Shown: positions 16,323-48,213 of the stretch, piece by piece
Layout: every line of letters starts with the position of its first letter
Numbering within the stretch: the first letter of the stretch is position 1
IMG/VR virus record: IMGVR_UViG_2643221865_000003
Origin: an uncultured virus (IMG/VR IMGVR_UViG_2643221865_000003)
Lineage: Duplodnaviria; Heunggongvirae; Uroviricota; Caudoviricetes
DNA length: 64,000 bases
Strand: one strand, 5' to 3'
Notes under the pieces: model-generated
Told to the model about the DNA's origin: nothing
The model's database searches: none
What the model saw: the letters and a program-made list of their open reading frames with translations, nothing else
Position numbers and translations under genes: made by a program

Positions 16323-16877
16323 TTGCTTGGCATTATGGTCCCCGAACGGCGGCCACCCACCTTGGTCAGCCGAAGCCGGGGGTTCACCTTGAAGGAGCGA
16401 TCTGTCGACGACCCGAAACGCACCTGGGATGAGTCGTTCCCGTTGTTCGTCGCGTGGGTTGCGGAGCATGGCCGGCTGCCGATGAAGACGGCGGAGCCCG
16501 GTGAGGAGCACCGCCACGCCACCTGGATGCAGTACCAACGTCGGCACCTGTCCCGCGGTACGTTGCTCCCCGATCATCAGGAGAAGCTCGACGAAGCCAC
16601 CCCGGGCTGGGAAGGACCTGCCGTGCCTGGCGTTCCGACCGCCGACCGGTATGAGCAGCTGTGGGGCGCCCGCCTTGATGAGCTGGCGACGTGGGTTGCG
16701 CAGCATGGCCGGTGGCCGAGCTCGTTGAGCAGCGACCCGGTCGAGGCGCATGCTGGCCGCTGGATCGGGGTGCAGCGCGGAGCGAAGGCAAGCACCGGCC
16801 GACGCTACAACGAGCGGTGCGTCCGACTGACCGCTGCGCTGCCCGGATGGGATGCGGAGAAGCTGAACCGGCGCTGA
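16323..16877 (+). CDS. Stand-alone HA-repeat protein (2 repeats)
   Basis: W..HGRLP..W.QYQR..LD..PGW pattern twice (PF03457-like); start uncertain. Confidence 0.75.
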   Translation: MLGIMVPERRPPTLVSRSRGFTLKERSVDDPKRTWDESFPLFVAWVAEHGRLPMKTAEPGEEHRHATWMQYQRRHLSRGTLLPDHQEKLDEATPGWEGPAVPGVPTADRYEQLWGARLDELATWVAQHGRWPSSLSSDPVEAHAGRWIGVQRGAKASTGRRYNERCVRLTAALPGWDAEKLNRR

Positions 16878-16898
16878 CCCAGCGTCCGGGCCCAGGCT

Positions 16899-17402
16899 TC
16901 AGAAGCAGGCTTCAGCCAACTCGATCGAGGTCGTCCCATGTTCGACGTATTCGGTCCCGCCGACGGTGTACCGGATCTGAACACTGGATGCCGTGCCACT
17001 CGTGTCGCCGGTCCGTTCGAGGACGAGGAGCAGGTTGCTGGTCGTGTCTTCCGGCAGCGTCGCCCCGGTCGCGTCCCGCCGCAGCGTCCACGCCTCCTCT
17101 GTCGGCGGGTACGCGGATGCTCCGATTCCTGACTGATCGATGATCGGCGCGATCGACGCTTCGGTCAGCTTCAGGTTGCTGGGGTCGACGAGGGTGACGT
17201 CGATCACTGTCGCTTCGACTCCGTCCGGAGCGGCGATGGTCTCCCCCACGACCATGCTGGTGTCCGGGACAGCGGGCACGCACACCTCGTTGTGCTCAGG
17301 GCCTTCGTATTCCAGTGGACCTGAGCCGGGGCTGGCGCTGCAGCCGGAGAGGGCGAGAAGGACGGCTGTGACAGCGGCCGCCTTTCCGCCAAGGTGAGTC
17401 AC
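16899..17402 (-). CDS. Lipoprotein
   Basis: Lipobox LSGC. Confidence 0.7.
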   Translation of the reverse strand: MTHLGGKAAAVTAVLLALSGCSASPGSGPLEYEGPEHNEVCVPAVPDTSMVVGETIAAPDGVEATVIDVTLVDPSNLKLTEASIAPIIDQSGIGASAYPPTEEAWTLRRDATGATLPEDTTSNLLLVLERTGDTSGTASSVQIRYTVGGTEYVEHGTTSIELAEACF

Positions 17403-17415
17403 TGCGGGCTCGCCG

Positions 17416-17613
17416 TCAGTTGTTCGTGACGTCGCCGTCGTCGTCCGCCAGGAGGAGCGTGATCTTGATCTCCTGCGCGCGGCGGTAGCTCTGCAGCGCC
17501 TGGGTGGCGACGAACATCAGGCGACCGAGGAGAACCAGCAGCGTGAGCGTCCCGAGCGTCAGCAGGACGAGGAACGCGATATACGGGATGGTGAACCAGT
17601 CGACGGTGTACAT
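17416..17613 (-). CDS. Small membrane protein
   Basis: TM helix; leaderless after TAGGTT. Confidence 0.7.
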   Translation of the reverse strand: MYTVDWFTIPYIAFLVLLTLGTLTLLVLLGRLMFVATQALQSYRRAQEIKITLLLADDDGDVTNN

Positions 17614-17636
17614 GCCCTGAACCTATGGGCATGGTG

Positions 17637-17975
17637 CTAGTCGCCGATGGCAACTCGCCGCGCCTGATTGCGCTTCACTCTGGGCCGCATGAACCACAGC
17701 ACGATGAGTGTGAGGACGCTCAAGGCGGCGGCGGCGAGCCCGTAGAACATGTGGATGCCGGCGAACGGGTCAGCTGAGTGGAACTGGTCGGATGTGCTGG
17801 CCGCGGTCATCGCCATCCACCCGAACAGCGGTGGGACAACGACAACAGCTGCGGCAGCCCACAGGTAGAACCATGGCCTGGACACGAACCGAGGATTCAA
17901 CACTCGGAGCACCGACCACAGGATCGCGAGGAAGACCGGCACGATCAGGGTTGGGATCAGCAGCAAGATGATCAT
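17637..17975 (-). CDS. 3-TM membrane protein
   Basis: SD GGAGG before MIILLLIP. Confidence 0.7.
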   Translation of the reverse strand: MIILLLIPTLIVPVFLAILWSVLRVLNPRFVSRPWFYLWAAAAVVVVPPLFGWMAMTAASTSDQFHSADPFAGIHMFYGLAAAALSVLTLIVLWFMRPRVKRNQARRVAIGD

Positions 17976-18016
17976 GGATGGCCCTCCCGCCGTTCCCGGA
18001 ATCGTATCGGGCGGAA

Positions 18017-18409
18017 CTAGAGCCCGTGCTCCCTGTTTCTCCTGGCGATCTCGTCGTGCCAGTACCGGTTGTTGTTGATCGACTCCCCACCGCGTGACGA
18101 ATGGTCGTAGGGGAATTGCTTCACGCGGGGGTGCTCGCTGAGCTCGATCACGTTCTTCGTGTTCGATTTCGCAGTCTGGGAGATCACCTCGTACGGCCCG
18201 TCCGGTGTCGGGTAGCCGCGCAGCTTCCAGGTGTCGCCTTCCACGTTCAGGTGGATGAAGGTGTCCTCCCGGATCCTGGGGATGTACACCAGGTAGAACT
18301 CCTTCCCTGCCATGGACGCAGTGGTTCCGCCCGGCGTCCGCCGTTTGGGTGCGCACGCATCGCAGCGGTCTTCCTCGAGCCCGTGAATGCATTCGGTCAT
18401 GTCCGCCAT
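18017..18409 (-). CDS. Hypothetical protein with N-terminal CxH..CxxC motif
   Basis: ECIHGLEEDRCDAC; start 18409 or 18400. Confidence 0.65.
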   Translation of the reverse strand: MADMTECIHGLEEDRCDACAPKRRTPGGTTASMAGKEFYLVYIPRIREDTFIHLNVEGDTWKLRGYPTPDGPYEVISQTAKSNTKNVIELSEHPRVKQFPYDHSSRGGESINNNRYWHDEIARRNREHGL

Positions 18410-18540
18410 AGTGCCACGATCTTCGGCGACGACGTCGGCCAACGACAGCCGAAGTTCGCAGCCAGCTTCCAGCCTCCGCGTCGGCGGTCGGGTCTAGGCT
18501 CCGATCACTGCTGTTCGACTTTCATCGAGGGGGCTGACCG

Positions 18541-19044
18541 TTGACAGATGCGCTGTATTTCACCATCACCGGAATGGACGCCGGAGGGCGCACCGTTCAG
18601 ATGTCTGCTCGTCCGTCGTCGGAGCCGCGCGGCATCATCCATGACGTATTCGAGTCGTTCGCTGCGCTGCACACCGAGACGGTGGCCATCCATGCGGTGA
18701 AGGCTGAGGACGGGTTCCCCGCCGCGGCCATCTTCGACGGCACCCATGTCGGGCTGCGGGCGTTCGACCAGGACCACCCCGGCGAATGGCTGCTGGTGGC
18801 GACGTTCGCGGAGCCGCCATTCTCCGACACCCCTGGCACATTCACCCCTGCTGGCGGGATCCTCTGGCAGGTAGTCACGCAGCTCGGCCGTCACGACGAG
18901 CAGGGGATCCTCCCCGATGTGTTCGACGGAGTTCGGGCCACTGCCAACCCCGCCCACCTGGTCGTGCCGCCACGGCTACACATCCCGGTCGCGGTCGATG
19001 ACGACGGGCAGCCCCTCGAAGGGGCCGGAGCGTCGATCGGCTGA
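18541..19044 (+). CDS. Hypothetical protein
   Basis: TTG start after GAGGGGG. Confidence 0.6.
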   Translation: MTDALYFTITGMDAGGRTVQMSARPSSEPRGIIHDVFESFAALHTETVAIHAVKAEDGFPAAAIFDGTHVGLRAFDQDHPGEWLLVATFAEPPFSDTPGTFTPAGGILWQVVTQLGRHDEQGILPDVFDGVRATANPAHLVVPPRLHIPVAVDDDGQPLEGAGASIG

Positions 19045-19079
19045 GCTGACGCCCAGCGACAGCGGGTAGCGTTGATCGG

Positions 19080-19571: not shown

Positions 19572-19599
19572 CGCGGTCCTTCTGACTGGGCCGGGATGG

Positions 19600-21700: not shown

Positions 21701-23878
21701 TCATTTGACGACCGCTGCCGTGGCCGCGCTCATCTTCGCCACCGGGGCGTACCCGACCTTGGAACCGGTCACCTTCACGGTGAGCTTCTTCCCGACGACC
21801 GCCGCGGTCGGCGTGAACGTGGAGTTTGTCGCACCGCTGACCGCTACCCCGGCGGCGTACCACTGGTACTTCAGTCCGACCGTCGCCGGCGACCAGGTGC
21901 CAGTCACCGCGGTCAGCACTCTCCCGACTTTCGCGGTGCCGGTGATCTTCGGAACCGGGGTGGCGGTCAGCTTCTTCGCAGCGGGGACAGTGATCGTCGT
22001 CGCGCTCGTCTTCAACACCGTCGTGTAGCCGGTCTTCGTTCCGGTGACCGCCACCAACAGTTTCTTCCCGATCTGGGCGGACGCCACCTTGTATGTGGAT
22101 GCGGTCGCCCCGGAGATGGCCGTACCGTTCGCGTACCACTGGTATCTCAACGTGACCGGCGCCGGAGCCCACCCGCCAGGAGACGCGGTCAGAATCCCGC
22201 CGAGCGCCACTGTGCCGGTGATCTTCGGGACCGCTGAGATCAACGTCCCCGGTTTCACGGGCAGGGTCGCCAAGCTCGTCTTCGTCACGGTGACGTACCC
22301 CGCTTTGGTCCCGGTCACCTTTACGGTGATCTTCTTACCGACCTGCGGCGGCATCGGCGTGTAGAACGGCGCGGACGCAGACGGGATCGCCACCCCATCG
22401 GCGTACCACCGGTACGCGAAACTGACCGGCGCGGGAGCCCATGTTCCAGCCGACGCGGACAGCCTGATTCCGACCTTCGCTGTGCCGGTTATCTTCGGCG
22501 CGGGTGTGGCCGTGAGCGGCAGTACCGCCGGTGCATACTCTGCCGTCCCAGCCGACGTGCCATCCGTCAGGAACACCTTCCCCTCCAGGTACCCCTGCGA
22601 CGCGACAAGAGCACGGTCGTTGGTGAGCGCGGCGGCGACAACCTCGGGAGCCCCGTTCACGAATCCCGAGCCGAGGTCTTTGACGAACACCGTCCCGGCG
22701 GCCGTCCCGTTCGACTTCCACAGCTGGGTGGCAGCGCCGATGTAGAGCACGTTCGTTCCTCCGCTGAATGGTGACGGCCCTCCGTACCGGGTGGGCACAG
22801 TCGCCAGGTCGATAGTTCCGGCTGCGGTTCCGTCGGTGGAGCGGATGATCTGCTGCTTGGGTACGTTCCCGTCAGAGGTGGCGAGGTACAGCCGCCCTTT
22901 CCACAGGTAGGAGCCGTTGAAGTACCAGCCGGCGCCGAGCGTCTCTTTAGTGCTGCCGTCCCATGCGTATGTGACGGTGCCCGTGTCGGTGCTCTGGGAG
23001 TAGACGAGCTTCCCGTTCACCCCTGCCATCGTCAGAGCGTTCTTCGAATCGGGCACCATGCTGGTGCCAGCGGTCGTCCCGTCAGTCACCCACAGGTTGT
23101 AGACGTGGCTGGCTTCTTCTTCATGGGTGATGGCAAGGAAGTACACCTTCCCGGCTACCTCCACAGGGTCCGCTCCTGGGATCGGTCCGGTGATGGGATC
23201 GCTGATGGTGTGGGTGCCTGCTGCAGTGCCGTCGGAGACGTACATCTTGGCGTTGGTCGGCGCCCACGGGGTGAAGTACGCACGGCCTCCCGCGGACGCG
23301 AAGCTGCTGGACGAGGAACCGTAGGCACCTTCGTAGACCTTGGTCGCGGATGTTCCGGCGGCGTTCGTCGCCCAGACGCCGCTCTTCCCCGTCGTGGTGT
23401 CGGTCGCTCCGAAGTACACGAGGCCGCCGGCTGCTCCCAGGATTCCGTACACCACCGATGTTGTCGAGCCGCTCACTCGTGTGGTCCCGGCGGCTGTGCC
23501 GTTGGTCCGCCATAACTCCTTCCTTGTGCCGTCCGACGCTGCGACGAAGTACGTGTACCCGCCGGCGTCGGTGAACCCGACGTCGCACTGGTCTCCATTG
23601 TTGGAGCACATGGATCCGCTGGCGCCGGGCGTGATGTCTTTCACCAGGCCGGTGCCGGCTGCTGTCCCGTCGGTCTTCCACAGCTCCATGCCGTAGGTGG
23701 CGGTGTGAGCTGCGAACAGGACTGTGTTGCCGGTGCTGTGCAGGTTCGAGTACGGGGTGATCCCATAGGACGAGTCAGCTCGCGCAGGTGCAGCCCCGAC
23801 GAAGATGGTGGCCATGGCGACGGCCGCCGCGACAACCGCTCCGACAATCCGACGTGATGCGGTCAGGCGTTCAGACAT
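21701..23878 (-). CDS. Secreted ELWxxDGT-repeat protein with three C-terminal Ig-like repeats
   Basis: Repeated ELW(K/R)TDGTAAGT; three P.ITGT.KVG..L..YQWYA.G repeats; signal peptide. Confidence 0.85.
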   Translation of the reverse strand: MSERLTASRRIVGAVVAAAVAMATIFVGAAPARADSSYGITPYSNLHSTGNTVLFAAHTATYGMELWKTDGTAAGTGLVKDITPGASGSMCSNNGDQCDVGFTDAGGYTYFVAASDGTRKELWRTNGTAAGTTRVSGSTTSVVYGILGAAGGLVYFGATDTTTGKSGVWATNAAGTSATKVYEGAYGSSSSSFASAGGRAYFTPWAPTNAKMYVSDGTAAGTHTISDPITGPIPGADPVEVAGKVYFLAITHEEEASHVYNLWVTDGTTAGTSMVPDSKNALTMAGVNGKLVYSQSTDTGTVTYAWDGSTKETLGAGWYFNGSYLWKGRLYLATSDGNVPKQQIIRSTDGTAAGTIDLATVPTRYGGPSPFSGGTNVLYIGAATQLWKSNGTAAGTVFVKDLGSGFVNGAPEVVAAALTNDRALVASQGYLEGKVFLTDGTSAGTAEYAPAVLPLTATPAPKITGTAKVGIRLSASAGTWAPAPVSFAYRWYADGVAIPSASAPFYTPMPPQVGKKITVKVTGTKAGYVTVTKTSLATLPVKPGTLISAVPKITGTVALGGILTASPGGWAPAPVTLRYQWYANGTAISGATASTYKVASAQIGKKLLVAVTGTKTGYTTVLKTSATTITVPAAKKLTATPVPKITGTAKVGRVLTAVTGTWSPATVGLKYQWYAAGVAVSGATNSTFTPTAAVVGKKLTVKVTGSKVGYAPVAKMSAATAAVVK

Positions 23879-24021
23879 GCGGGTGCTCCCCAGTTGTCGG
23901 CAGTCCACCTCGAGCCACTCGGGAACTGTTGCAGGCTGGGGTTGGTGCCGGTGCCCCAAACCGTATTGCGGTTCAAGCTGGTGTGTCTATGACCAGTTCG
24001 CGTGGTAGCTGCCGCCGGCGG

Positions 24022-24885
24022 CTACTCCCCCTTGGCCTCCCAAACCTCTTCACCGGTGGTGACGAGGGTGGCGACGCCTTCGCGGATGACGCGGTGGCAG
24101 CCGGCGGAGCTGACGGAGGTGATGGGTCCGGGGACGGCGGTGACGGGGATGTTGAGGGCGTCGGCGCACGCGGCGGTGGTCAGTGACCCGGAACGCATCC
24201 CGGCTTCGGTGATGACGAGCACGTCAGACGCGGCAGCGATGAGTCGGTTGCGGCTGAGGAAACGCCATTTGGTGGGCTGGGTTCCCGGCGGGAGTTCGCT
24301 GACGACAGCGCCGTGCTGGCCGATCCGGTGGATGAGCTGGTCGTGTCCGGCCGGGTAGGGGCGGTCGACACCACCGGCGAGCAACGCGATCGTCTTGCCG
24401 TCGGCGGCGAGGGCGGACCGGTGGGCCATCCCGTCCACTCCGTACGCTGCGCCGGAGACGATGGTGGCGCCGCGGCTGACGAGGTCGGCGGTGATCTCCT
24501 GCGTGGTGGTCTCCCCGTACATGGTGGCGGCGCGAGCGCCGATGACGCCGGCGCGGATGCCGTCGGTGAGGAGGGTGGGATCACCCTTCACGAACAGGAT
24601 GATCGGGGCGGTGTCGCGTAGCTTCCCAGCCCATGACGGCCAGCCGTCACCCTCGGGGGTGAGGACGGTGATGCGTTCACGTTCGATGACCTTAAGCGCG
24701 TAGTCGACCTCGGTCTCGGACGGCCTGCGGCCGGTGCCGGGGATGGAGGTGCCCGGCAGCTTCGCCAGAGCGTCGACCGGTCCGTGGTCTGCGATGAACC
24801 GTCCGACCTCAGCGTTCCCCGGCTCGACGATGAACGACAAGGCGATCCGGGCGGTGGTCGGGTCGGTCGTGGTGAAAGCAGTCAT
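24022..24885 (-). CDS. dprA: DNA-processing protein DprA
   Basis: VIGARAATMYG, IVSGAAYGVDGMAH, FLSRNRLIAA, EAGMRSGSL, VPGPITS; SD GGAG. Confidence 0.92.
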   Translation of the reverse strand: MTAFTTTDPTTARIALSFIVEPGNAEVGRFIADHGPVDALAKLPGTSIPGTGRRPSETEVDYALKVIERERITVLTPEGDGWPSWAGKLRDTAPIILFVKGDPTLLTDGIRAGVIGARAATMYGETTTQEITADLVSRGATIVSGAAYGVDGMAHRSALAADGKTIALLAGGVDRPYPAGHDQLIHRIGQHGAVVSELPPGTQPTKWRFLSRNRLIAAASDVLVITEAGMRSGSLTTAACADALNIPVTAVPGPITSVSSAGCHRVIREGVATLVTTGEEVWEAKGE

Positions 24886-24929
24886 GGTCGAACTCCAAAG
24901 CGTGAGGGTGTCGGTTCTTCTGACACCTA

Positions 24930-24938
24930 CATGCGCGG
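24930..24938 (-). promoter_or_regulatory. Motif A
   Basis: AGAA-N10-CCGCGCATG-TAGGT upstream of dprA. Confidence 0.7.
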
Positions 24939-25031
24939 AGAGCAGCCGTTCTGTGCGGTTGTGCACACACTCGATGTACGTCAGTGAGGATGCTCGCAAG
25001 GGGGTGTACCCGAGGCGTAAGGTCAGGGACC

Positions 25032-25649
25032 ATGGAGTATCTCGAACCGGCGACGCATTGGTTCGCAGCATGGCGGGATGCGCAGGGTTGGCCTCACATC
25101 GATGTGCCCGACGATCTCGACGGCCGCACCTGGTTCAAGAGAGTCGCTCGCGCTCACCCCGACGTGGATGTGGAGTTCTGGCTGGCGAAGTTCGATCTGT
25201 GGGTCCTCCGCCAGTCGTTCCAGCCGATCGGCTTGAAGCAGGTTCGCTTCCCGCTGTCGATCAAGTTCGACTCCGCCGTCGAGGACGACGACGACGGATT
25301 CGGTGGGTTCAAAACCGAAGAGGGCGAAGCTGCCGACTCGGTCATCGAGTCGATCCTGACGGGCGAAGGTCGGTTCATCAGGTTCCGGGTCCGGAAGGCA
25401 AACTACGGACGGTACACCGATGAGCCCGTGTGGAAGCTCTGGTCGGAGCTCCCCCGCGACGAGAGTCTCTGGACCGAGGACATCGGCGGCGAATGGACAT
25501 GGTTCGACGAGCGCAAGGCTTTCGAGGTTGCCCATGAAGCTGTGGGCGACGATCGACCGACGTTCCCGTTCATCGGCAGACCGGAGCGGACCTGGCCGGA
25601 CCTGCTCACTCAGCACGAGCTCAACCCGGACGTGCGAACGAACATGTGA
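25032..25649 (+). CDS. Hypothetical protein, DVDVEFWL family
   Basis: Paralog of 19080..19571; leaderless after TAAGGT. Confidence 0.7.
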   Translation: MEYLEPATHWFAAWRDAQGWPHIDVPDDLDGRTWFKRVARAHPDVDVEFWLAKFDLWVLRQSFQPIGLKQVRFPLSIKFDSAVEDDDDGFGGFKTEEGEAADSVIESILTGEGRFIRFRVRKANYGRYTDEPVWKLWSELPRDESLWTEDIGGEWTWFDERKAFEVAHEAVGDDRPTFPFIGRPERTWPDLLTQHELNPDVRTNM

Positions 25650-25793: not shown

Positions 25794-26231
25794 ATGACCA
25801 CAGACTGGCCCGAATACCTTGCCCAGATCACCAACGGGGACACCCTCACCGAGATCTCGAAGCGCACCGGTGCGAACATCGCCAGCGTGCACCGGTGGCT
25901 GCACGGGAAGACCAACCCGACCCACACCCAGATCGCTGCCGTGTGCCGCGCATACAACGTCTCCCCGGCTGCCGCGTTCGTCACCCTCGGCGTCCTCGAA
26001 GAGGCCGACCTCGACCCGGGATTCTGGACGCAGGACGCACCGGTCCGCCTCGCCGACTTCGACACCGACGTGCTGCTGCGGGAGCTCGGCCGCCGCGTCC
26101 AACCCCGCCCTGAACCCAAACCGAAAGGCCACGCCCGCCCGAAGGTGAAGACGCTGCCGGACTACTCCGAGACGGACCTCACCAAGGAGATGATGCGGCG
26201 CGCACGCGAACGGGAGAACGCCAACTCCTGA
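25794..26231 (+). CDS. XRE-family HTH regulator
   Basis: TLTEISKRTGANIASVHRWLHGKTNP; leaderless after TAGGTT. Confidence 0.85.
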   Translation: MTTDWPEYLAQITNGDTLTEISKRTGANIASVHRWLHGKTNPTHTQIAAVCRAYNVSPAAAFVTLGVLEEADLDPGFWTQDAPVRLADFDTDVLLRELGRRVQPRPEPKPKGHARPKVKTLPDYSETDLTKEMMRRARERENANS

Positions 26232-26274: not shown

Positions 26275-26751
26275 ATGAGCACCGACCAGGCTCACCGGAA
26301 CGCCCGCACCGCCCAGGAGAAAGAAATCGCCTGGCGGGAACGATCCGCCCAGCTCGCAGAGTTCCTACGCGTCCACGGCCGGAAACCATCCCGCCGCTCC
26401 TACGACCCGATCGAAGTGCAGCTCGGCGAATGGCTCCACCATCAACGCCGCATCCAACGAACCACCGGCCTGCCCGACGAACGATGGCACACCCTCGACG
26501 ACAACGCACCCGGCTGGGAAGACACCGTCGACAAATGGCAGCTCCGACTGGAGATGCTGATCGAGTTCCTCGCCACCGAACACCGGTGGCCCCGGCAGTC
26601 GGAGAACACCGAACCGCTGGAACACACCCTCGGGAACTGGCTCGGGAGGCAACGCACCGCACTCCGCACCGGCGAGCTCAGAGAATCACGGCTCGCAACA
26701 CTGGACGAACGAGTGCCCGACTGGGAGACCGGGAACGGGCCGATCGGATGA
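26275..26751 (+). CDS. Stand-alone HA-repeat protein (2 repeats)
   Basis: HGRKP..LGEWLHHQR..PGW; LGNWLGRQR..GEL..LD. Confidence 0.8.
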   Translation: MSTDQAHRNARTAQEKEIAWRERSAQLAEFLRVHGRKPSRRSYDPIEVQLGEWLHHQRRIQRTTGLPDERWHTLDDNAPGWEDTVDKWQLRLEMLIEFLATEHRWPRQSENTEPLEHTLGNWLGRQRTALRTGELRESRLATLDERVPDWETGNGPIG

Positions 26752-37852: not shown

Positions 37853-38515
37853 TCAGCCTGCCAGGTGCGCCACCGGCCGAGCCTGGCTCACCGGCTCCGG
37901 CGCACAGAGCTTGTACGAGTCGGTGACAGTTGCCGGATGCTGATCCCAGCGCTGACGAAGCCGCGCTCGGGCCCTGGACAGGAGCACCGCGGCGTGGCCG
38001 GGGGTGACTCCGGTGGCTTCGGCGATCTCGGCTGTGGTCTTCTGCTCGACTTCGGCGAGCCAGATGATGGCTCGCATCCGGTCGGGCAGCAGGTTGAACG
38101 CGTCGATCGCGTGACGGCCGCGTTCGGTGGTGATCGCCAAGTCCGTCGGGTCGGGCAGCACGGGGTCGAGGACGCCGTCGTCGACGTCGGTTTCGAACTC
38201 AGCTGCTTCCCACATAATGCCGGTGGTCAGCACTTCGGTGAAGGTGGAGCCGATCCCTTTCCCGCGGGCGACGTGCTCAACGACTCGGGTGAACACGTTG
38301 GCGACGACATCGTCGGTGTACCCGATGTCGAGTGATCTCACGTCCAGCTCGCGACGGGCCGCGGCGACAGCCCACGGGTAGGAGCGGCGGAGCATCTCGT
38401 CGAGCGCGGACATGTTGCCGGCGCTGACTTGTGTGGTGAGCGCCTTGTCGCTCATGCGTGCGTAGAGCTGGTCTGTCCGGGGCGCGGACGGGTGGTGCTG
38501 CAAAACTTCCCCCAT
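37853..38515 (-). CDS. Sigma-70 family (ECF-like) RNA polymerase sigma factor
   Basis: Region 4 LPDRMRAIIWL..TAEIAEATGVTPGHAAVLLSRARARL; region 2-like DDVVANVF; start 38515 or 38455. Confidence 0.8.
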   Translation of the reverse strand: MGEVLQHHPSAPRTDQLYARMSDKALTTQVSAGNMSALDEMLRRSYPWAVAAARRELDVRSLDIGYTDDVVANVFTRVVEHVARGKGIGSTFTEVLTTGIMWEAAEFETDVDDGVLDPVLPDPTDLAITTERGRHAIDAFNLLPDRMRAIIWLAEVEQKTTAEIAEATGVTPGHAAVLLSRARARLRQRWDQHPATVTDSYKLCAPEPVSQARPVAHLAG

Positions 38516-39407: not shown

Positions 39408-39444
39408 AAGAACGCCCGGCAGGGATCCCCCGCCGGGCGTTCTT
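39408..39444. terminator. Bidirectional intrinsic terminator
   Basis: AAGAACGCCCGGC..GCCGGGCGTTCTT between convergent genes. Confidence 0.8.
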
Positions 39445-39462: not shown

Positions 39463-40542
39463 TTACGCGTCCGGGTTCAGGTGGATCAGGTCAGCCTCGT
39501 CGACCTGCGGGATCTGGAACGCCCAGTCGGGGATGAACCCGCTGTCGGTCATCGTCTTCAGCAGGGCGGGGAACGTGTAGTCCGGGTCGATGGCGATCGA
39601 CTGGTCGGCGAACACGGCGGCGCGGGACGACTGGCCGAGCGCCCAGGCGCACCAGCCGGCCATGACCAGCGGGGCGGCGCGCTTCTGGGTGGGTGCGGAC
39701 GCGGCGAGGAGCAGCGCGACGTCGAGTGCATTCTTGAGTCGGTCCACGTCCGGTCGGTCTCCCATACCTGCGAGGGTGGCGCCGAGGGTGTCGTGGATGA
39801 CGGTGTGGTTCGCGACGTTCAGGAGTGCGTGTCGGGCGATCTTGTCGGACTCGTCGTCGCGGCCGCGTGCCCACTGGATCAGGGCGACGTCGCGCATGGT
39901 GGGGCTGTCGAAGATCAGCAGGAGTCGTGCCCGCTCCGTGGCGGTCAGGGCGTCCGCGGTGATCGCGTCCTCGAACAGGGTGAAGATGCTGTCGAGGTTC
40001 CCGAGGTCGGTGGACGGCTGGTCGACCAGGGCGGCGATCTCGTCACGGATGGTGGCGTCGACGTCGGGGAGCTTGGTCTCACCGAGGTACGTGGCGGTGG
40101 GCGCTTCGACGAGCTCGCTCACGGCGGACTCGCCGATCTCCGCCAGCGGGTGTCCGTCGGCGGGTGTGTCCTTGTCGACGAAGGACATCCACCGGGTCGG
40201 GGTGACCATCAGGAAGTCGCGGAGGGGCGGGCCGACCATGTCGGAGTACGCGGTGAGGTCGGCGGCCACCTGAAGGTGCGGTGCGTACCCGTCGACGTAG
40301 TCGTCGTTGGTGTAGATGACGGGGACGATGTGGGTGAGGTTGTCGACGCGGGTGACGATCTTCAGCATGTCGGTGACCCAGTTCGGGCGGTTCGTCGCTT
40401 CCAGGTCGAAGCGGATCCCACCGATGGTGCGGTTGCCGTTGAACGCGACGAAGACGATGCTGTCCGTCGGCGTGTATCCGAGCATGGTGGGGAGCAGGGC
40501 GAGGAAGTCGTTGCCGGACTTGGCTTTGATGACGTTGGTCAT
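39463..40542 (-). CDS. DUF4192 family protein
   Basis: DFLALLPTMLGYTPTDSIV..RFDL, MRD, GWCAWALG..A; SD AAGGAG. Confidence 0.85.
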   Translation of the reverse strand: MTNVIKAKSGNDFLALLPTMLGYTPTDSIVFVAFNGNRTIGGIRFDLEATNRPNWVTDMLKIVTRVDNLTHIVPVIYTNDDYVDGYAPHLQVAADLTAYSDMVGPPLRDFLMVTPTRWMSFVDKDTPADGHPLAEIGESAVSELVEAPTATYLGETKLPDVDATIRDEIAALVDQPSTDLGNLDSIFTLFEDAITADALTATERARLLLIFDSPTMRDVALIQWARGRDDESDKIARHALLNVANHTVIHDTLGATLAGMGDRPDVDRLKNALDVALLLAASAPTQKRAAPLVMAGWCAWALGQSSRAAVFADQSIAIDPDYTFPALLKTMTDSGFIPDWAFQIPQVDEADLIHLNPDA

Positions 40543-40572
40543 GAGGTGATTCTCCTTCTGGGTCGTCACCCA

Positions 40573-40581
40573 CATGTGCGG
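40573..40581 (-). promoter_or_regulatory. Motif A
   Basis: CCGCACATG-TGGGT. Confidence 0.7.
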
Positions 40582-40624
40582 AACAGCCGCAATCTGCGCT
40601 CCCGCATAGCCGATCTGATTCAGC

Positions 40625-41122
40625 TCAGAGTGCGAGAAGCTCCAGCACCAGCTCAGCACGCTCCGGCGGCAGAACCCCAGCGTTCGACGCCACCTTCTGC
40701 TTCGACAGCCACCGGCCGAGCTTGTCCTCAGCGGCACGCTCCGGCGGCAACGTCGACGACGGCAACCGATGCGTCAGCGGCTTCCTGCCTGTCGAGTCGA
40801 TGAACTCCCGCACAGCTTCCGCTTTCGACTCCCACCGGTGATCCCGGGGAGCGCACTCAACCCACAGATCACCCAGCGCAGACTTCAGGTACGCCCGACG
40901 CGGATCGGTGAGAGTTCCGTGCCGGTCAGCTTCACGCTGCTTCGACACCCACCTGCCCAACCGGTCCTCCGCCGCCAGATCAGCCGGCATGTCCCGGGCA
41001 GCACCCATCCGCGACAACGGCAGATGGCCGTGCTCGCCGAGGAACGCAGCGACCGAGTCAGCGGTCTCACGCCAACCAGCGCCGACCACCTGGTCGACGA
41101 AGGAATCAAAGGGGAAGTCCAT
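40625..41122 (-). CDS. Stand-alone HA-repeat protein (2 repeats)
   Basis: HGHLP..LGRWVSKQR; LGRWLSKQK; motif A variant TCGCGCATA 8 nt upstream. Confidence 0.8.
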   Translation of the reverse strand: MDFPFDSFVDQVVGAGWRETADSVAAFLGEHGHLPLSRMGAARDMPADLAAEDRLGRWVSKQREADRHGTLTDPRRAYLKSALGDLWVECAPRDHRWESKAEAVREFIDSTGRKPLTHRLPSSTLPPERAAEDKLGRWLSKQKVASNAGVLPPERAELVLELLAL

Positions 41123-41215
41123 ACATCTTCTATGCGCGAGGGAGGGTGCCGGCTGCTGATGCCAGCCGGGTGCAGAGGTCACGCATAGAACCGGTGGAAC
41201 GAATACCGGAGACCC

Positions 41216-42325
41216 ATGATGATAGACATCGACCAGATCCTTACCGACGCTGCAGAGGCGGTGACCGCCGAGATGCCCAAAGACACAAGTGCGCAATGGC
41301 GTTCCCGCTTGGACGCCTTCAAGGCGTGGAAGGAGGTCTCCGGGAAGTGGCCGTCCATGAACTCTGTCGATCTGGACGAACGCAGCTTCGCCCAATGGCG
41401 CAACAAGCAACTGCGACTTCCAGCTGGGTCTGACCGGCGTGCCACCCTCGACAACGAGGTGCCGGGCTGGGTCCGTTCGCAGTCCCGCTGGGATGAGGCG
41501 TTCGCTGCGCTGCTCGACTGGTCCGCCGACCATGACGGTGCCACCCCGCGCGTCGGCGCGTCAGGCGATGAAGGGCCCCACGCCACATTCCTCAGGCACA
41601 ACCGACTTCACCCGGACCGGGTGACCGCAGAGCAGCGTGCGCTTCTGGATGTGGCTTACCCAGGTTGGTGGAAGACGCAGCACGACAAGTGGATCGAGGA
41701 GCTCGACGGGTTCTGCGTCTGGTTCGACGAGAACGGCAAGACGTTCCCCCGCCGATCGGTGAAGGGGACAGAAGAGTTCCGCTGGAACCGCTGGCTGGAA
41801 GGGCTACGCCGCCGCACCAACGACCCGAAGAAGCTGGAACTCCTCGACGCCAGAGTTCCGGGATGGCGAGAGTCGGGAAGCGTCGCGGAAAGAATCACCA
41901 CCCCAGACCTGACATGGATGTTGGGGTTCAATGCGACATCCGACTGGGTCGACGAGCACGGAGCGCTCCCACGTTCCAACGGCGACGACACCGATGAGTC
42001 GTTGCACGGGAACTGGCTGAGACTCCAACGCCGCCTCGCTGATGGTGAATGCGCCGAACTCCTCGACGAGCGGCTCCCCGGATGGCGGACAGGCCGGGCC
42101 TCTTCCCCTCGCTGGCACATGTTCGTTGCGAACGTGGAAGCGACAGCTGCTTGGCTGGAACAGAACCCCGGCCGCACGCCGACATACTCCGAACCGAGTG
42201 TTGAAGGGCGCGCCGCGCACCAGTTCCTCACAAGGCTGAGGCACGCGTCGGACAACTACTCAGAGAAGGCCCTCGCCCTCGCCGATAAGCGATTGCCTGG
42301 ATGGCGGACCACGAGACAGAGCTGA
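41216..42325 (+). CDS. Stand-alone HA-repeat protein (5 repeats)
   Basis: Five units ending (L/A)D..PGW. Confidence 0.8.
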   Translation: MMIDIDQILTDAAEAVTAEMPKDTSAQWRSRLDAFKAWKEVSGKWPSMNSVDLDERSFAQWRNKQLRLPAGSDRRATLDNEVPGWVRSQSRWDEAFAALLDWSADHDGATPRVGASGDEGPHATFLRHNRLHPDRVTAEQRALLDVAYPGWWKTQHDKWIEELDGFCVWFDENGKTFPRRSVKGTEEFRWNRWLEGLRRRTNDPKKLELLDARVPGWRESGSVAERITTPDLTWMLGFNATSDWVDEHGALPRSNGDDTDESLHGNWLRLQRRLADGECAELLDERLPGWRTGRASSPRWHMFVANVEATAAWLEQNPGRTPTYSEPSVEGRAAHQFLTRLRHASDNYSEKALALADKRLPGWRTTRQS

Positions 42326-42400
42326 TCTCGGAGGAGCCGCGGGCCTCCAACCCGACGCTGAAACGCGCAGCCGGCCTGTTACGCCACGCATAGGACCCCT

Positions 42401-43075
42401 ATGCATGACACAACAACTACCGATCAGGCGTTCACCGACGCGCTGGACGCCCTTGCCGCTTTCGTGACTGACCACAGCCGCACCCCCAGCATCAAAGAGA
42501 CCTCAGACGGCGTCCGCGTCGGCGAGTGGCTCGCAACGCAGCGCGCCCAGTACCGCAACGGCCGGCTCACCGGCGAGCGTGCCACCGCGATCACCGCGAT
42601 CATCCCCGGAAGCCTCGACACCCTCGAAGACGCATGGCGGGCACGGGCTGCCGACCTAGAACGCTTCATCCAGGTCCGTCACCGCACACCACTCCGCAAC
42701 GGCCGCGGCGAAGCATCCCTCGCCATCTGGCTCATGAACCAGCAGACCGCAGAGAAGAAGGGCACCCTCCCGGCACCCAGATCCGAGCGCCTCGCCCAGA
42801 TCCTCAGCCAGTCCGGCGAGACCCTGGCGAAAGGTGCCTGGTCGACCACGCTCAGCAATCTGGAGGCGTTCGTCGCCGCCAACGGCAGGCTCCCCCGACG
42901 CGGCAGCTCAGACATCGTCGAGCGCCGCCTCGCCGATTGGGTCAACACCCAGCGCCACCGCCACAACACCGTGAAGAACCTCACCATCGACCGGATCAAC
43001 CGGCTCGCCGCCATCCCCGGATGGGCATGGTCAGCGAAGGAACCCAGCACCGTGCTGAACGCCGGACTGGCCTGA
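42401..43075 (+). CDS. Stand-alone HA-repeat protein (3 repeats)
   Basis: GEWLATQR, IWLMNQQ, DWVNTQR..IPGW; motif A variant CCACGCATA 8 nt upstream. Confidence 0.85.
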   Translation: MHDTTTTDQAFTDALDALAAFVTDHSRTPSIKETSDGVRVGEWLATQRAQYRNGRLTGERATAITAIIPGSLDTLEDAWRARAADLERFIQVRHRTPLRNGRGEASLAIWLMNQQTAEKKGTLPAPRSERLAQILSQSGETLAKGAWSTTLSNLEAFVAANGRLPRRGSSDIVERRLADWVNTQRHRHNTVKNLTIDRINRLAAIPGWAWSAKEPSTVLNAGLA

Positions 43076-43131: not shown

Positions 43132-44115
43132 ATGAACCCCTACACCACCGTCGAGGAGCGCTTGTCGCTGCTTCGAGTGTTCGTCGACCGTGAAGGTCAC
43201 GCTCGTGTCCCTGCCCGTCATGAGGAGTCGGGCCGCGGGCTGGGTAGATGGGTCGACAAGTGGCGTCGCGCGCATCTGAATGGCGCCCTGGACACTGACC
43301 TGGCTCGCACCCTGGAGGCTCTGCCCGGTTGGGTGTGGTCCGGCAATGAGTTCATGTACGAGCGCGGGCTGAACGCCCTCCGCGAGTACGTTGCTGTGGC
43401 CGGCCACTGCAACCTCAGGTCCGAGGAGATCCTCGGCGGTGTGGAGCTCGGCAAGTGGGTGCGGCGCCGCACCCTGGAGTTCGAGCGCGGCGAACTGTCC
43501 GATGACCGGCGTGCTGCGCTTGAAGAGATCCCCGGCTGGTTCTGGGACCGCCGCGACCGGCAGCTGTTCGCTGAACTTCGAGTGTGGGCGCGGTGGTCTG
43601 AAGCCCGGAACCTCCTCGTCCCCGCCCGGAACGAAGCGTTCCGCGGGTTCCCGATCGGGCATTGGCACCGGGACCTGGAGAAGAAGTCAGCTGCGGGGAA
43701 GCTCTCACCGTCGGCCGCCGCGATGGTCGAGAAGGCCGGCATCATCCTCGATGTCGACGCCGCCCATTTCGCGACGTTGCTCCGGGCGGTGAAGGAGCAT
43801 GCTGATCGGACCGGGTCGTTGGACATCCCGTGGGATGTCCGTGTCGACGGTGTGCTGCTCGCCCGGTGGTTCTACAGGCAGCAGGAGCTTGCCCGGTTCG
43901 GTGACCTTGACATGCCTCGCGTTCACGCGTTGGCGCGGGTGATCGAGGAAGGTACCGGTGAGGACGTCCCGGACCGGTTCTACTTGCTGGCGCAGTCCCG
44001 CCGGCTGGAGCATGAGTTTCGGCAGGCGCCTGCTGGACTCGTGTCTCCTCCTGCCCGGCGTGCGACCTGGGCCCGGATGCCGGTCCGCGAGCTGCACGAC
44101 GTCGTCATCGGCTGA
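43132..44115 (+). CDS. Stand-alone HA-repeat protein (4 repeats)
   Basis: EGHARVP..LGRWV..LEALPGWVW, a canonical HA pattern. Confidence 0.85.
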   Translation: MNPYTTVEERLSLLRVFVDREGHARVPARHEESGRGLGRWVDKWRRAHLNGALDTDLARTLEALPGWVWSGNEFMYERGLNALREYVAVAGHCNLRSEEILGGVELGKWVRRRTLEFERGELSDDRRAALEEIPGWFWDRRDRQLFAELRVWARWSEARNLLVPARNEAFRGFPIGHWHRDLEKKSAAGKLSPSAAAMVEKAGIILDVDAAHFATLLRAVKEHADRTGSLDIPWDVRVDGVLLARWFYRQQELARFGDLDMPRVHALARVIEEGTGEDVPDRFYLLAQSRRLEHEFRQAPAGLVSPPARRATWARMPVRELHDVVIG

Positions 44116-44121
44116 GCACTC

Positions 44122-45513: not shown

Positions 45514-46089
45514 ATGACCGAGAACACCAACCGCAGCAACAACGTCGACACCCATTGGAACGCTGTCCGCGCCGCCGCGCTCACCGTCCAGGACTGGACC
45601 GAGTACACGTACAACTCCCAGAACCTCTGGCAGCTCGACTTCGAGGACGGCTGGCGCGACACGTACGCCGGGTTCGTCTCAGTCGCCCGTACTGTCGTCA
45701 TGGCATGGGCAGTGGATGAGTCCGGCCTCACGAAGGAGGAGCACACCGGGTGGGCGGCGTCGATGATGTGGGGCATCGCGGAGGACATCTCCGCGGGCGG
45801 GTTCACCCTCGCTGACGGCCGCCGTGTCGACCCGGGCTCCCAGAACGCCGACCGGGCAGCCCAGTTCGCAGCTCTCCTCGCCAACAACCTCGACGGCGCC
45901 AACGGTGTCGGCGGGTTCAAGCCGCTCCGTCACGCAGACTACGACGAAGCGCGGATGGAGACCATCGACATGGTGTGCGGAGTGGTGGCGCACTTGGTGA
46001 CGCTCGCCGAGCGGAAGTCCCCGGTGTACGACGCCGACTACGGGGTGCTGGACGCTGTCGTCGACGACGTCGACGAGATGCTCGCCTGA
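45514..46089 (+). CDS. Hypothetical protein
   Basis: Protein-like; motif A variant CTGCGCATG at 45450. Confidence 0.75.
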   Translation: MTENTNRSNNVDTHWNAVRAAALTVQDWTEYTYNSQNLWQLDFEDGWRDTYAGFVSVARTVVMAWAVDESGLTKEEHTGWAASMMWGIAEDISAGGFTLADGRRVDPGSQNADRAAQFAALLANNLDGANGVGGFKPLRHADYDEARMETIDMVCGVVAHLVTLAERKSPVYDADYGVLDAVVDDVDEMLA

Positions 46090-46151
46090 GGACGGCTCGG
46101 CCGACATCAGCAGGTGTTCGAATGACGGCGGGTTGCCAGTACTCTGACGCC

Positions 46152-46811
46152 ATGAAGGTTGTCGCTGGTCCGTTCCCCGCTACGGACGGATACTCCATCT
46201 CCGCTGGCGCGATGGCCTTGGTCGTGAAGACCTGGGCTCTCGACAGCAGCACGGTCGAGCGTGTCCAGTTTGTGGATTCCGGGAAGAGCTACAACTACGC
46301 GAAAGGCGGCGCCGGCGTTTTCGTCGGCGCCGCTGTAGCCGGCCCGGCGGGCGCGCTCGTCGGCGGGCTGCTTCCGAAGGCGTTCAAGGACTCAACGGTT
46401 CGCTTCGTGATCGAGTTCAAGGACGGACGTCAGGCGCACTGTGTTGGTTCCCCGAGAGAGTACGAGCGGGCGCTGAAGTACTCACTTCGTCCGCCGCACG
46501 ATGGATCGCCAGAGAAGTTCGTTCCGTCTGTGGCTGACAGAGATCGGCTCCGTGCTGAGCTCGATGCCGATGAAGCTGCGAAGAGGACTGAAAAGAGGAC
46601 TGAAAGGGACCGGCTTCGGGCGGAAGCGGCCGCAGGCAAGGCGTCGAAGAAGATCGACAAGGCCCAGCTCCGTGCAGACTCCGCTGCTCAGAAGTTGACC
46701 CCCGAGCAGAAGGCGGAGCGAAAGGCCCGCATGAAGGCCGTCATCGATCAGAACCTGCCGTTCAAAGAGGCAATGCGCCGCAGCGCGGAGATCGACGCGG
46801 AGTACCGCTGA
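46152..46811 (+). CDS. Glycine-zipper protein with charged coiled tail
   Basis: GAAVAGPAGALVGG, IEFKDGR; leaderless after TACTCT. Confidence 0.75.
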   Translation: MKVVAGPFPATDGYSISAGAMALVVKTWALDSSTVERVQFVDSGKSYNYAKGGAGVFVGAAVAGPAGALVGGLLPKAFKDSTVRFVIEFKDGRQAHCVGSPREYERALKYSLRPPHDGSPEKFVPSVADRDRLRAELDADEAAKRTEKRTERDRLRAEAAAGKASKKIDKAQLRADSAAQKLTPEQKAERKARMKAVIDQNLPFKEAMRRSAEIDAEYR

Positions 46812-46926
46812 GCCTGGACAGCCACCCCGATTACGCCTGGCAGCCGCCGGCACCGGAGGCGTCGTGACAGCCGGCCCGATCCGCCACGCATAGAGATAGG
46901 TTGCGGTTCTGCAAAACGTTCCGTGT

Positions 46927-46935
46927 CCGCACATG
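46927..46935 (+). promoter_or_regulatory. Motif A
   Basis: AAAA-N10-CCGCACATG; variant CCACGCATA at 46884. Confidence 0.7.
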
Positions 46936-46994
46936 AAGGGGGCACGACTGTACCCACAGTCGGACCAGCCCACCAACTTGTAGGAGCACCACCC

Positions 46995-47513
46995 TTGAAC
47001 CCGACCAGCACAACACCCGGAAACGTCCTGAACGACGCCAGCTACGCGTTGGAGGCGTGGGTGACGCAGGAGCAGCTGTTCGTGAACCACGACGTCACCG
47101 TCGACACGTTCCAGTACCTGTACTCCGGGTTCGTCACCCTCGGCGCGTTCTCGCTGTTCTCCTCCGCTTCGCTGGCTGTCACTGACGACGCCCAGGTGGC
47201 GTTCACTCTGGCCGGCAGCACCCTCGAGGCGATCCTCGACGACGTGTACACCGATGGTGACCCGGCCGACCTGGCTGTCGCCGCAGCTCACCAGTTCGGT
47301 GCTGCTGTCGCGGAGTTCATCACCCGCGCGGCCGCCGGCGCCGGCGACACCGCCGATCTGCAGATCCCCGCCACGTCGGAGGAGCGCGCTGTCGTCCTCG
47401 ACGAGGCCGCCCGTCTGGTGGAAGCGATCGTGTCGATCCACGCTGAGCTGACCGAACTGTCGCTCGACGAGATGCTGTACGAGTACCGTGCTGAGGCCGG
47501 GCTGCTAGCTTGA
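46995..47513 (+). CDS. Hypothetical protein
   Basis: TTG start after AGGAG. Confidence 0.7.
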   Translation: MNPTSTTPGNVLNDASYALEAWVTQEQLFVNHDVTVDTFQYLYSGFVTLGAFSLFSSASLAVTDDAQVAFTLAGSTLEAILDDVYTDGDPADLAVAAAHQFGAAVAEFITRAAAGAGDTADLQIPATSEERAVVLDEAARLVEAIVSIHAELTELSLDEMLYEYRAEAGLLA

Positions 47514-47517
47514 TTCC

Positions 47518-48213
47518 ATGGTGGGTGAACCGCCGCGGGAACTGAACCCGCGGTACGTGGAACAGCTTCTCGGCTTCGTCGAGAAGAACGGCCACGCCCG
47601 TGTCCCGTACAGGGTGCCGGGGTTGGGGCCGTGGGTTTCCGGTCGAAGGAAAGCGCGTCGGGCTGGACGCATGGATCCGCAGACAGTGAAATGGTTCGAG
47701 TCGGTACCTGGCTGGGAGTGGGAAGGAACCCTCCCCGCAGGCGTCGACGGTGAACGCCGGCAACATCTGGAAGCGTCACTTCGCACCGGTTGGGGCAGCG
47801 CCCGCGCGATGGAAGCGTTCGACGCTTTCGTTGCCCGTGAAGGGCATGCCCACATCCCGATCGACCATGTCGAAGGGGACTTCAAGCTGGGCCGCTGGGT
47901 GATGGTGCAACGAGATCAGTACCGCACCGGGCAGATGTCCGAGGAGCGCCGTGAGGTGCTGGAATCAGCTCCCGGATGGCGGTGGAATGGTCGCGTGAAC
48001 AGCCGGGAGGAGAAACTCCAGGCGTTGGACGCGTACGTCGGCCGTGTTGGTGACGCCAAGGTTCCGAATGCTCATGTCGAAGACGGTGTTGCGTTGGGAC
48101 AGTGGGTGGGAGCGCAACGCGTCGCCCACAAGGCAGGGAAGCTGCCGGCGGAGTTCGAAGCGAGGCTGGAGGCCTACCCGGGCTGGGAATGGCGTTCAAC
48201 TCGAACCCAGTGA
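47518..48213 (+). CDS. Stand-alone HA-repeat protein (3 repeats)
   Basis: NGHARVP, EGHAHIP, GDAKVP; LG.WV..QR; PGW.W three times. Confidence 0.9.
   Translation: MVGEPPRELNPRYVEQLLGFVEKNGHARVPYRVPGLGPWVSGRRKARRAGRMDPQTVKWFESVPGWEWEGTLPAGVDGERRQHLEASLRTGWGSARAMEAFDAFVAREGHAHIPIDHVEGDFKLGRWVMVQRDQYRTGQMSEERREVLESAPGWRWNGRVNSREEKLQALDAYVGRVGDAKVPNAHVEDGVALGQWVGAQRVAHKAGKLPAEFEARLEAYPGWEWRSTRTQ

Follow-up and report, generated by a model that had tools for sequence, protein, structure and literature searches.

The stretch of DNA analysed here (the window; 64,000 nucleotides, record IMGVR_UViG_2643221865_000003), which corresponds to positions 318655-382654 of contig C5 in a 4.54-Mb assembly, encodes seven stand-alone proteins made of helicase-associated (HA) repeats, and three further paralogs are encoded elsewhere on C5, which we read as an unusually self-sufficient megaplasmid. 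Seven of the ten genes stand in units headed by a bipartite promoter-like box that is confined to this replicon. We consider, with a probability of about 0.5, that the HA-only proteins are DNA-binding accessory proteins of the megaplasmid, which would be co-expressed with genes for replication, nucleotide supply and helicases and whose individual targets would be set by helix 2 of their repeats. This reading rests on the fusion partners of HA repeats in relatives, on the patterns of residue conservation and on the common box. Positions without a prefix are those of the window, and those with the prefix C5 are positions on the contig.

Results

Ten stand-alone HA-repeat proteins on one replicon

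All seven open reading frames (ORFs) of the window exceed the gathering score of the Pfam HA family, PF03457 (28.4 bits), with E-values reported from 1e-10 to 1e-37 and scores, in ORF order, of 42.1, 54.1, 60.8, 34.4, 99.4, 113.9 and 128.3 bits; the three paralogs outside the window score 84.5-135.3 bits. An earlier note on this DNA, made from the letters alone, had described seven stand-alone HA-repeat proteins with about 21 repeats, and this description holds. None of the ten HA ORFs contains a helicase domain by Pfam. The repeats were counted with a hidden Markov model (HMM) built from the genome's own HA repeats and iterated once, a clear repeat being one with i-E<0.01. The window proteins, again in ORF order, have 2, 2, 2, 4, 3, 3 and 3 clear repeats, or 19, and two degenerate ones, the fifth unit of 41216 (E 1.6) and a unit of 43132 at about residues 143-205, bring the number to 21. 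The genes, each referred to below by its first coordinate, are as follows.

16335..16877, + strand: HA-only protein of 180 amino acids from ATG 16335 (the ORF opens at TTG 16323); 2 repeats (own HMM, E 3e-21 and 2.9e-20); PF03457 E 1.1e-10; isoelectric point (pI) 9.5; no box within 150 nucleotides upstream.
26275..26751, + strand: HA-only protein of 158 amino acids; 2 repeats (E 4.5e-22 and 7.4e-19); PF03457 E 2e-14.
40625..41122, - strand: HA-only protein, trimmed to 165 amino acids; 2 repeats (residues 160-233 and 237-307 of the long ORF, own HMM); PF03457 E 1.5e-16.
41216..42325, + strand: HA-only protein of 369 amino acids; 5 repeats (own HMM, E 1.2e-15, 1e-5, 2e-3, 1.6e-16 and a marginal 1.6); PF03457 E 2.8e-8.
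42401..43075, + strand: HA-only protein of 224 amino acids; 3 repeats; pI 10.3; PF03457 E 1.4e-28.
43132..44115, + strand: HA protein of 327 amino acids; 3 clear repeats, the degenerate unit and a tail of about 50 residues; PF03457 E 4.3e-33.
47518..48213, + strand: HA-only protein of 231 amino acids; 3 repeats of the "GHAxVP" subtype; pI 9.3; PF03457 E 1.3e-37.
C5:316601-317287, C5:~424330-425013 and C5:537412-538302: HA-only genes outside the window.

The last three were added by a PF03457 search across the replicon, as the earlier note had proposed; all 24 matches in the genome, like all ten HA ORFs, lie on C5, and the other contigs have none. The ten proteins are 27-37% identical to one another by BLASTP, which agrees with the diversified paralog set that the note had inferred and marks the divergence of the paralogs as old; at this level of identity synonymous sites are saturated. 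None of the ten has a meaningful match in PADLOC or NCBIfam, and the seven that were compared with PHROGs have none there either.

The coding signal is normal in all seven ORFs of the window, the GC content being 0.70-0.83 at third codon positions (GC3) against about 0.5 at second positions (GC2), and the frames are intact. The ORF at 40625-41533 on the minus strand is over-extended: its first ~137 codons are antisense to a genuine HA repeat of 41216 on the plus strand (E 1.2e-15). M138 (41122) is the most likely start of the gene, which then encodes 165 residues with two repeats. For 47518, whose public gene call has 180 amino acids, the 231-residue form is preferred because the shorter call drops a repeat that scores E 2e-15.

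The computed repeat consensus, W8..L15..F18..G23..P26..E35..L38G39.W41..Q45R46..G52.L54..R58..L62..P67G68W69, agrees with the motif given in the note, and all 15 dipeptides it had listed after W[LV] are present. Two subtypes of the repeat co-occur, one with "HGRxP" and a more canonical one with "GHAxVP".

A promoter-like box private to C5

Comparison of the regions upstream of the HA genes yielded a bipartite box with the consensus gaCAGCCGGC-N6-gctCgCGCATAGAacC, also written gaCAGCCGGC-N6-gctCgCGCATAGA. As CAGCCSS-N10-CRCGCATAG it is found at 15 sites on C5 and at none in the other 3.84 Mb, whereas 20 shuffles of C5 gave 0 or 1 match. All 15 boxes span 26 nucleotides, though the first pattern used had allowed 8-16 variable bases, and at 11 of the 15 a real ORF has its start codon 5-7 nucleotides after CGCATAG, as in leaderless messages. 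The window holds four matches against 0.00 expected, every one of which precedes an HA unit, and allowing three mismatches adds none.

41130..41155, - strand: box CAGCCGGC-N10-CGCGCATAG, heading 40625-41122; the ATG is 7 nucleotides downstream, and the message looks leaderless.
41163..41188, + strand: box heading 41216, with a 27-nucleotide leader.
42368..42393, + strand: box heading 42401, with the ATG 7 nucleotides downstream.
46868..46893, + strand: box heading the unit 46923-47513 / 47518-48213.

The first two form a divergent pair around the palindrome CCGGCTG-N7-CAGCCGG. The gene 43132, which follows 42401 after a gap of 57 nucleotides and has no box of its own, is probably co-transcribed with it. 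In C5 as a whole, six boxes head units with seven of the ten HA genes, namely the gene at C5:316601 (c316), 40625, 41216, 42401 with 43132, 46923-47518, and cas3 with its HA gene. An HA gene is the first gene at 4 of the 15 boxes, where there are 10 HA genes among 779 (hypergeometric P 1.8e-5). The boxes without an HA gene head a small ORF followed by a DNA methylase gene; fliM; genes for an HD protein and thymidylate synthase; a 287-residue ORF; a 939-residue SNF2/Helicase_C protein encoded at C5:622515-625334; a DNA polymerase III (Pol III) alpha homologue; 1025- and 735-residue proteins to which no function could be given; and, in the ninth case, two small ORFs followed by the gene for the small chain of ribonucleotide reductase.

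The box may act as a promoter, and the gene for an extracytoplasmic function (ECF)-type sigma factor at 37853-38515 is a candidate for the cognate factor that would read it. Box-like matches in metagenomes were discarded: the 32 exact matches to CAGCCGGC-N9-CGCGCATAGA are attributed to chance, as they have neither the flanking consensus nor a start codon in register, and no convincing HA gene lies near them, the sole signal being one frame of 41 residues (E 3e-4).

Fold and variability of the repeats

A search of the PDB sequence set with the repeat profile gave a single match, 2kta_A (E 2.8e-8). The model of a single repeat has three helices (predicted local distance difference test, pLDDT, 91.3) and aligns with 2KTA at a Z score of 6.9 over 65 of 70 residues (root mean square deviation 3.1 A), the next chain reaching Z 4.1; 2KTA was recovered only by exhaustive VIA-align, since Foldseek found nothing in the PDB at E<=1e-3 with either the single-repeat or the three-repeat model. 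The AlphaFold2 model of 47518 (pLDDT 87.8; predicted template modelling score, pTM, 0.55) consists of three three-helix units whose domains are confidently predicted (pLDDT above 90), and the whole three-repeat array has no structural match. According to these models, each HA domain is a module of about 70 residues with the 2KTA fold.

Repeats of different proteins share 24.5% identity on average and those of one protein 31%, no value exceeding 46%, and as aligned the repeats are without the near-identical frame of TALE repeats, while the conserved core residues are kept across all 29 local repeats. The earlier note had singled out the two residues after W[LV], positions 43 and 44, as widely variable and possibly part of a repeat-based recognition code. 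Their variability is real, but in the local set they are unexceptional (entropy 3.55 and 3.51 bits): some eight further positions vary as much, and a code of two residues thus finds little encouragement. Family-wide, they belong to the most variable helical surface. In 1,429 repeats from the best 150 proteins, aligned over 71 positions, the helix-2 positions 40, 43, 44, 47 and 48 rank 2, 8, 6, 5 and 7 by entropy (3.64-3.86 bits), above any exposed position in helix 1 or helix 3 (<=3.5 bits). They are spaced i, i+3, i+4, i+7 and i+8 and hence lie on one helical face. Helix 2 also holds the W-V-x-x-Q-R segment, and W41, Q45 and R46 are conserved in 97%, 72% and 93% of the same 1,429 repeats. Such a stripe would be expected of a recognition surface, and equally of the most exposed face of the domain.

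Relatives and known architectures

Of 1.84 billion cluster representatives, 29,593 match the profile of the 29 repeats at E<=1e-3, and pure HA arrays, which have no non-HA stretch of at least 150 residues, make up 80 of the best 150 matches. In 93 of 102 relatives of 47518 of similar length, HA is the sole Pfam family; some of them bear the name "helicase associated domain-containing protein", and examples come from Nocardia fusca, Gemmatimonadota and Acidobacteria records. The novelty claimed in the earlier note was therefore overstated, as such arrays are common in public data. The architecture is known, widespread and uncharacterised, the literature searched having yielded no work on the function of any protein that has it, and what is new here is its ten-fold expansion on one replicon together with a private promoter-like class. 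One preprint that matched "helicase-associated domain" was set aside, as it concerned HA2, an unrelated family.

The longer relatives of 47518 point to DNA enzymes. Helicase_C is present in 91 of the best 120 of them by hand count, and the commonest fused architecture, seen in Mycobacterium and Nocardia records, is an Mrr-like nuclease followed by DEAD/ResIII, Helicase_C and an HA array. The restriction-type nuclease partners include Mrr_cat, Mrr_cat_2 and DUF559; other partners of HA in relatives include an excisionase-type helix-turn-helix (HTH) domain, ROS/MucR and a Holliday-junction-type endonuclease. The HA parts of the fused proteins are 35-42% identical to 47518, which is the range of the stand-alone relatives. 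As for the literature, the title of the 2KTA paper, as it stands in the reference list of PMC12191111, says that the structure "indicates domain binding to DNA". Excerpts of two reports (10.1101/2024.11.13.623437; 10.1101/2025.07.27.667033) describe HA fused to TniQ target selectors, and those of the former (10.1101/2024.11.13.623437) propose that the tandem HA domains of Streptomyces TtrA and of telomeric Tn7-like TniQ recognise DNA features.

In related genomes HA genes are sparse, any HA match being present in 4 of 40, and the number per genome is 0-2 in relatives from the same bacterial family. The four related loci that could be resolved each encode a single HA-only protein of 146-243 residues among unrelated neighbours with no helicase nearby, while three weak HA matches in another genome (G008) were not recovered by a gene caller combined with the HMM. 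At one locus from the same bacterial family (L045; G013:C1:3115000-3132000), a gene for a 236-residue HA-only protein lies about 4 kb from a TniB gene, which recalls the TniQ-HA fusions.

Helicases and the cas3 neighbourhood

The earlier note had stressed the absence of a helicase. This is correct for the window, where neither Helicase_C nor ResIII has a match (C5:318655-382654), Pfam finds no helicase among the 72 other ORFs, and no SF2 helicase gene adjoins any of the seven HA genes; it is also correct in that there is no HA-helicase fusion. Elsewhere on the replicon, in contrast, one paralog lies directly behind cas3, and seven of the ten HA genes share their box with cas3 and the SNF2 helicase gene. 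The paralog at C5:537412 starts 41 nucleotides after the stop codon of the Cas3 gene (Cas3_HD E 2e-33) in a type I-E cas operon (C5:534575-543631) with the order cas3, HA gene, cse1, cse2, cas7, cas5 and cas6e, and it encodes 296 residues with four HA repeats. No Pfam match to Cas1 or Cas2 was seen, and a crude search for repeats detected no CRISPR array on C5, its one candidate lying on C4 at ~683.5 kb. Among the Cas3 relatives found, the closest (63% identity) is encoded on a contig of Agromyces humi, where the gap between cas3 and cse1 contains other small ORFs and no HA gene, and HA is present in none of four related Cas3 loci. From these comparisons, the position looks like a variable cargo slot and not a conserved partnership. 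In the fused forms, moreover, HA is attached to a helicase of another type than Cas3.

The profile search had also returned fused HA proteins, and their 70 N-terminal portions outside HA were used as tblastn queries against the genome. None matched C5, and there is therefore nothing to suggest that an HA-type helicase has been split up or has decayed on this contig. Nine of the 70 match chromosomal genes, seven of them one and the same helicase at C6:~427-428.6 kb with 23-40% identity. A 1665-residue protein with methyltransferase, ResIII and Helicase_C domains and without HA is encoded at C5:150889-155886; no link between it and the HA genes was found.

The replicon, neighbouring genes and other observations

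C5 measures 701,121 base pairs (bp) and is uniformly ~65% GC (65.2%), compared with 68-69% for the other large contigs. A phage origin had been suspected from its tRNA array, its tmRNA and its cas genes, and was rejected: outside the window C5 encodes 175 proteins of 330 residues or more, and a Pfam scan of 151 of them revealed no capsid, terminase or portal protein and returned instead RepA_C, gyrase, flagellar and Tad-like secretion genes, while the PHROG matches within the window are to Ig-like or Dit-like domains only. C5 is read as a megaplasmid because it encodes the RepA_C plasmid replication protein, has a lower GC content and shows none of those phage genes among the proteins scanned, and because seven genomes of the same genus measure 3.2-3.8 Mb. 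Its two ends have no direct or inverted repeat in common, and there is no sign of linearity; the HA genes sit 316-538 kb into it.

The cargo of C5 comprises 42 tRNA genes, 38 of them in one array, and a tmRNA gene; gyrase A/B, two Pol III alpha homologues, ribonucleotide reductase, ThyA, two NAD ligases and PARP; a full flagellar cluster (~104-130 kb) and two Tad-like secretion clusters; and, for defence and counter-defence, Wadjet JetABCD, restriction enzymes, HipA, Fic and the cas operon. The tRNA array lies at 5.9-22 kb and continues at 692-700.6 kb, and functions related to RNA include RtcB, Ro60/TROVE, RNA ligase, Thg1 and a CCA/polyA polymerase.

Near the HA genes, the following features were noted.

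25794-26231: Cro/C1-type HTH gene (HTH_26 match), 44 nucleotides upstream of HA gene 26275.
37853..38515, - strand: gene for an ECF-type sigma factor, at a distance of 2 kb from the HA cluster (Sigma70_r4_2 E 9.4e-11; TIGR02937 44.6 bits against a cut-off of 42.9); it has a paralog at C5:475959-476735.
39408-39444: strong terminator-like hairpin with a 17-bp stem, after the DUF4192 gene.
39463..40737, - strand: DUF4192 protein (PF13830 E 7.6e-26), directly downstream of HA gene 40625, with which it is probably co-transcribed.
46923..47513, + strand: protein of 196 amino acids with no Pfam, PHROG, PADLOC or NCBIfam match; first gene of its unit, HA gene 47518 starting 4 nucleotides later.

Co-duplication of the HA genes with neighbouring modules was considered and dismissed, as an all-against-all BLAST of the genes within four positions of each HA gene found no common neighbours. 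At the nucleotide level, the region 39-49 kb has no megablast match in the plasmid and phage collections. In a soil-metagenome run, short contigs are 92-98% identical to 40000-40820 and 45800-47670, and 8 of the 11 differences listed within 46923-47513 fall at third codon positions; the fragments touch the ends of two HA genes and are too short for analysis. A relative of the element is thus present in soil.

Among the 72 non-HA ORFs of the window that were scanned, 49 have no Pfam match at E<=1e-3. Others encode DprA (24022-25071, - strand; DNA_processg_A E 5e-65), thymidine kinase (55917-56570, - strand) and a PcfJ-like protein (3499-4860, - strand). The product of 51511-54057 (+ strand) and those of at least 12 other C5 genes, among them C5:403278, 62307, 593541, 100241, 164678, 159107 and 134440, are large proteins with a common N-terminal domain of ~150 residues (32-47% identity) in front of varied C-terminal parts (BNR/sortilin, RCC1, DUF285), and this domain may be a common secretion or anchoring module. 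A set of paralogous giant proteins with Ig-like repeats (SCAB-Ig/Ig_2 matches; repeats 30-54% identical) includes that of 21701-23959 (- strand) and those of C5:74086-78831, 226439-230833, 398069-400213, 482079-484763, 658219-660597 and 671450-674317.

Discussion

If the HA-only proteins are DNA-binding accessory proteins of the megaplasmid, each repeat would present helix 2 to nucleic acid, with W41, Q45 and R46 as a constant anchor, and the stripe of positions 40, 43, 44, 47 and 48, which differs between repeats, would give each paralog its own target preference. Promoters of a single class, specific to the plasmid, would drive most of the HA genes, largely as leaderless messages, along with cas3 and the plasmid genes for DNA replication, nucleotide supply and helicases, and the proteins would act on plasmid DNA once those functions are on. 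A bolder form of this idea, to which we give little credence, makes the ten paralogs modular DNA readers, in which every repeat would read a short element and every protein would have its own address on the megaplasmid, where it would guide or restrain enzymes; the private promoter class would then switch on the HA proteins with Cas3, the SNF2 helicase, Pol III alpha, ribonucleotide reductase and thymidylate synthase.

Several observations weigh against the accessory-protein reading. The proteins are not uniformly basic, as the pI ranges from 6.0 to 10.4. The box is absent from three of the ten HA genes (16335, 26275 and C5:~424330), the presence of fliM under it means that the set is not purely DNA-related, and a generic scan for sigma-70 promoters and terminators over 39-49.5 kb gave no excess over shuffles and, for sigma-70, no signal at the boxes. 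The orientation of the repeats relative to one another is uncertain, as indicated by the pTM of 0.55, and no regular array that could track DNA is seen. The loop positions 29-33 and the N-terminal positions 4-7 are as variable as the helix-2 stripe, which may therefore be just the most exposed helical surface, and the positions of the stripe were picked post hoc, after inspection of the data. Finally, no close orthologue of the HA genes was found, the best relative at high coverage being 44% identical for 47518 and 32% for 42401.

The rival explanations are, in order of weight, trans-acting tails, protein- or RNA-binding scaffolds, anti-restriction decoys and gene decay. The HA-only proteins might be detached targeting subunits that dock in trans on Cas3, on the SNF2 helicase or on the methyltransferase-helicase of C5:150889-155886, serving as alternative DNA-binding tails in a split form of the nuclease-helicase-HA protein. 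The HA parts of the fused enzymes are indeed as close to 47518 as the stand-alone proteins are, one paralog follows cas3 within its operon, and Cas3 and the 939-residue protein are encoded under the same box as the HA genes. We nevertheless regard this explanation as unlikely: none of the 70 N-terminal parts of fused proteins matches C5, the window has no helicase, no docking peptide common to the N-termini of the ten HA proteins is apparent by eye, related Cas3 loci are without HA, and the single HA-only genes of the four relatives are surrounded by unrelated genes. Still less probable, in our estimate, is that HA repeats are generic helical interaction modules for protein or RNA that do not read DNA at all. 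Small three-helix bundles serve many roles, the structural neighbours besides 2KTA are weak and heterogeneous (Z <=4.1), several of the paralogs are acidic to neutral (pI 6.0-6.7), and RNA-repair and tRNA functions abound on the plasmid; against this, HA in relatives is fused overwhelmingly to DNA enzymes and DNA-binding domains, and the most conserved polar residues are a Gln and an Arg on one helix, as expected for contact with nucleic acid.

That the proteins act as decoys or shields, occupying the DNA features that the HA nuclease-helicases of recipient cells read and so countering restriction, would fit the joining of HA arrays to restriction-type nucleases in fused relatives, the number and plasmid location of the genes and the richness of the plasmid in defence and counter-defence cargo. 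The present host, however, is without any HA-bearing helicase, none of the ten proteins matches PADLOC, and the co-regulated genes are those of replication and nucleotide supply instead of typical leading-region genes, which makes this role very improbable. Decay of helicase-HA genes, or ORFs that are spurious, can hardly be credited, even though 41216 and 43132 contain degenerate units (the fifth and the middle one, respectively) and part of the ORF 40625-41533 is spurious. It is contradicted by the coding signal and intact frames of all seven ORFs, by the core residues kept in 29 repeats and by dedicated promoter-like boxes at an exact spacing from the start codons, and no helicase remnants exist on the contig.

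Comparison with known systems places the HA-only proteins within a familiar fold and outside the familiar enzymes. They belong to the same family as 2KTA, the only solved example, which comes from a putative helicase of Bacteroides vulgatus and with which they share the three-helix fold and the tandem copies. The name of the family implies an attached helicase, which is missing here but, as the many pure arrays (80 of 150) show, is not required for membership. Stand-alone HA proteins in public data have the same architecture, whereas here ten paralogs on one replicon are tied to a private box. The proteins that combine an Mrr-like nuclease, an SF2 helicase and HA are single enzymes of 1100-1500 residues, and the megaplasmid has no such nuclease-helicase part. 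Streptomyces TtrA and the TniQ-HA proteins are alike in their tandem HA domains and differ in having a helicase or a TniQ domain, and the telomere helicases of the TtrA type have their helicase core encoded near linear ends, while the HA proteins of C5 have no such core, their genes are internal and terminal repeats are absent. In their possible mode of working, and not by membership, the proteins may be compared with TALE, PUF and PPR proteins. Both are built of helical repeats in tandem, and in HA, too, a conserved frame may set off a small number of variable and probably exposed residues beside conserved anchors; HA repeats, in contrast, are only ~25-30% identical, and their three-repeat array is modelled with a pTM of only 0.55.

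HA is a very large family whose function rests on one nuclear magnetic resonance structure and on inference from neighbouring domains. The locus described here offers a compact test bed for it, with ten diverged paralogs of two to five repeats in one cultivable-type genome, four of which have precisely placed boxes. The box, for its part, would define a plasmid-private transcription programme that comprises replication, nucleotide supply, cas3 and the HA proteins, and it bears on how very large plasmids may run their own gene expression.

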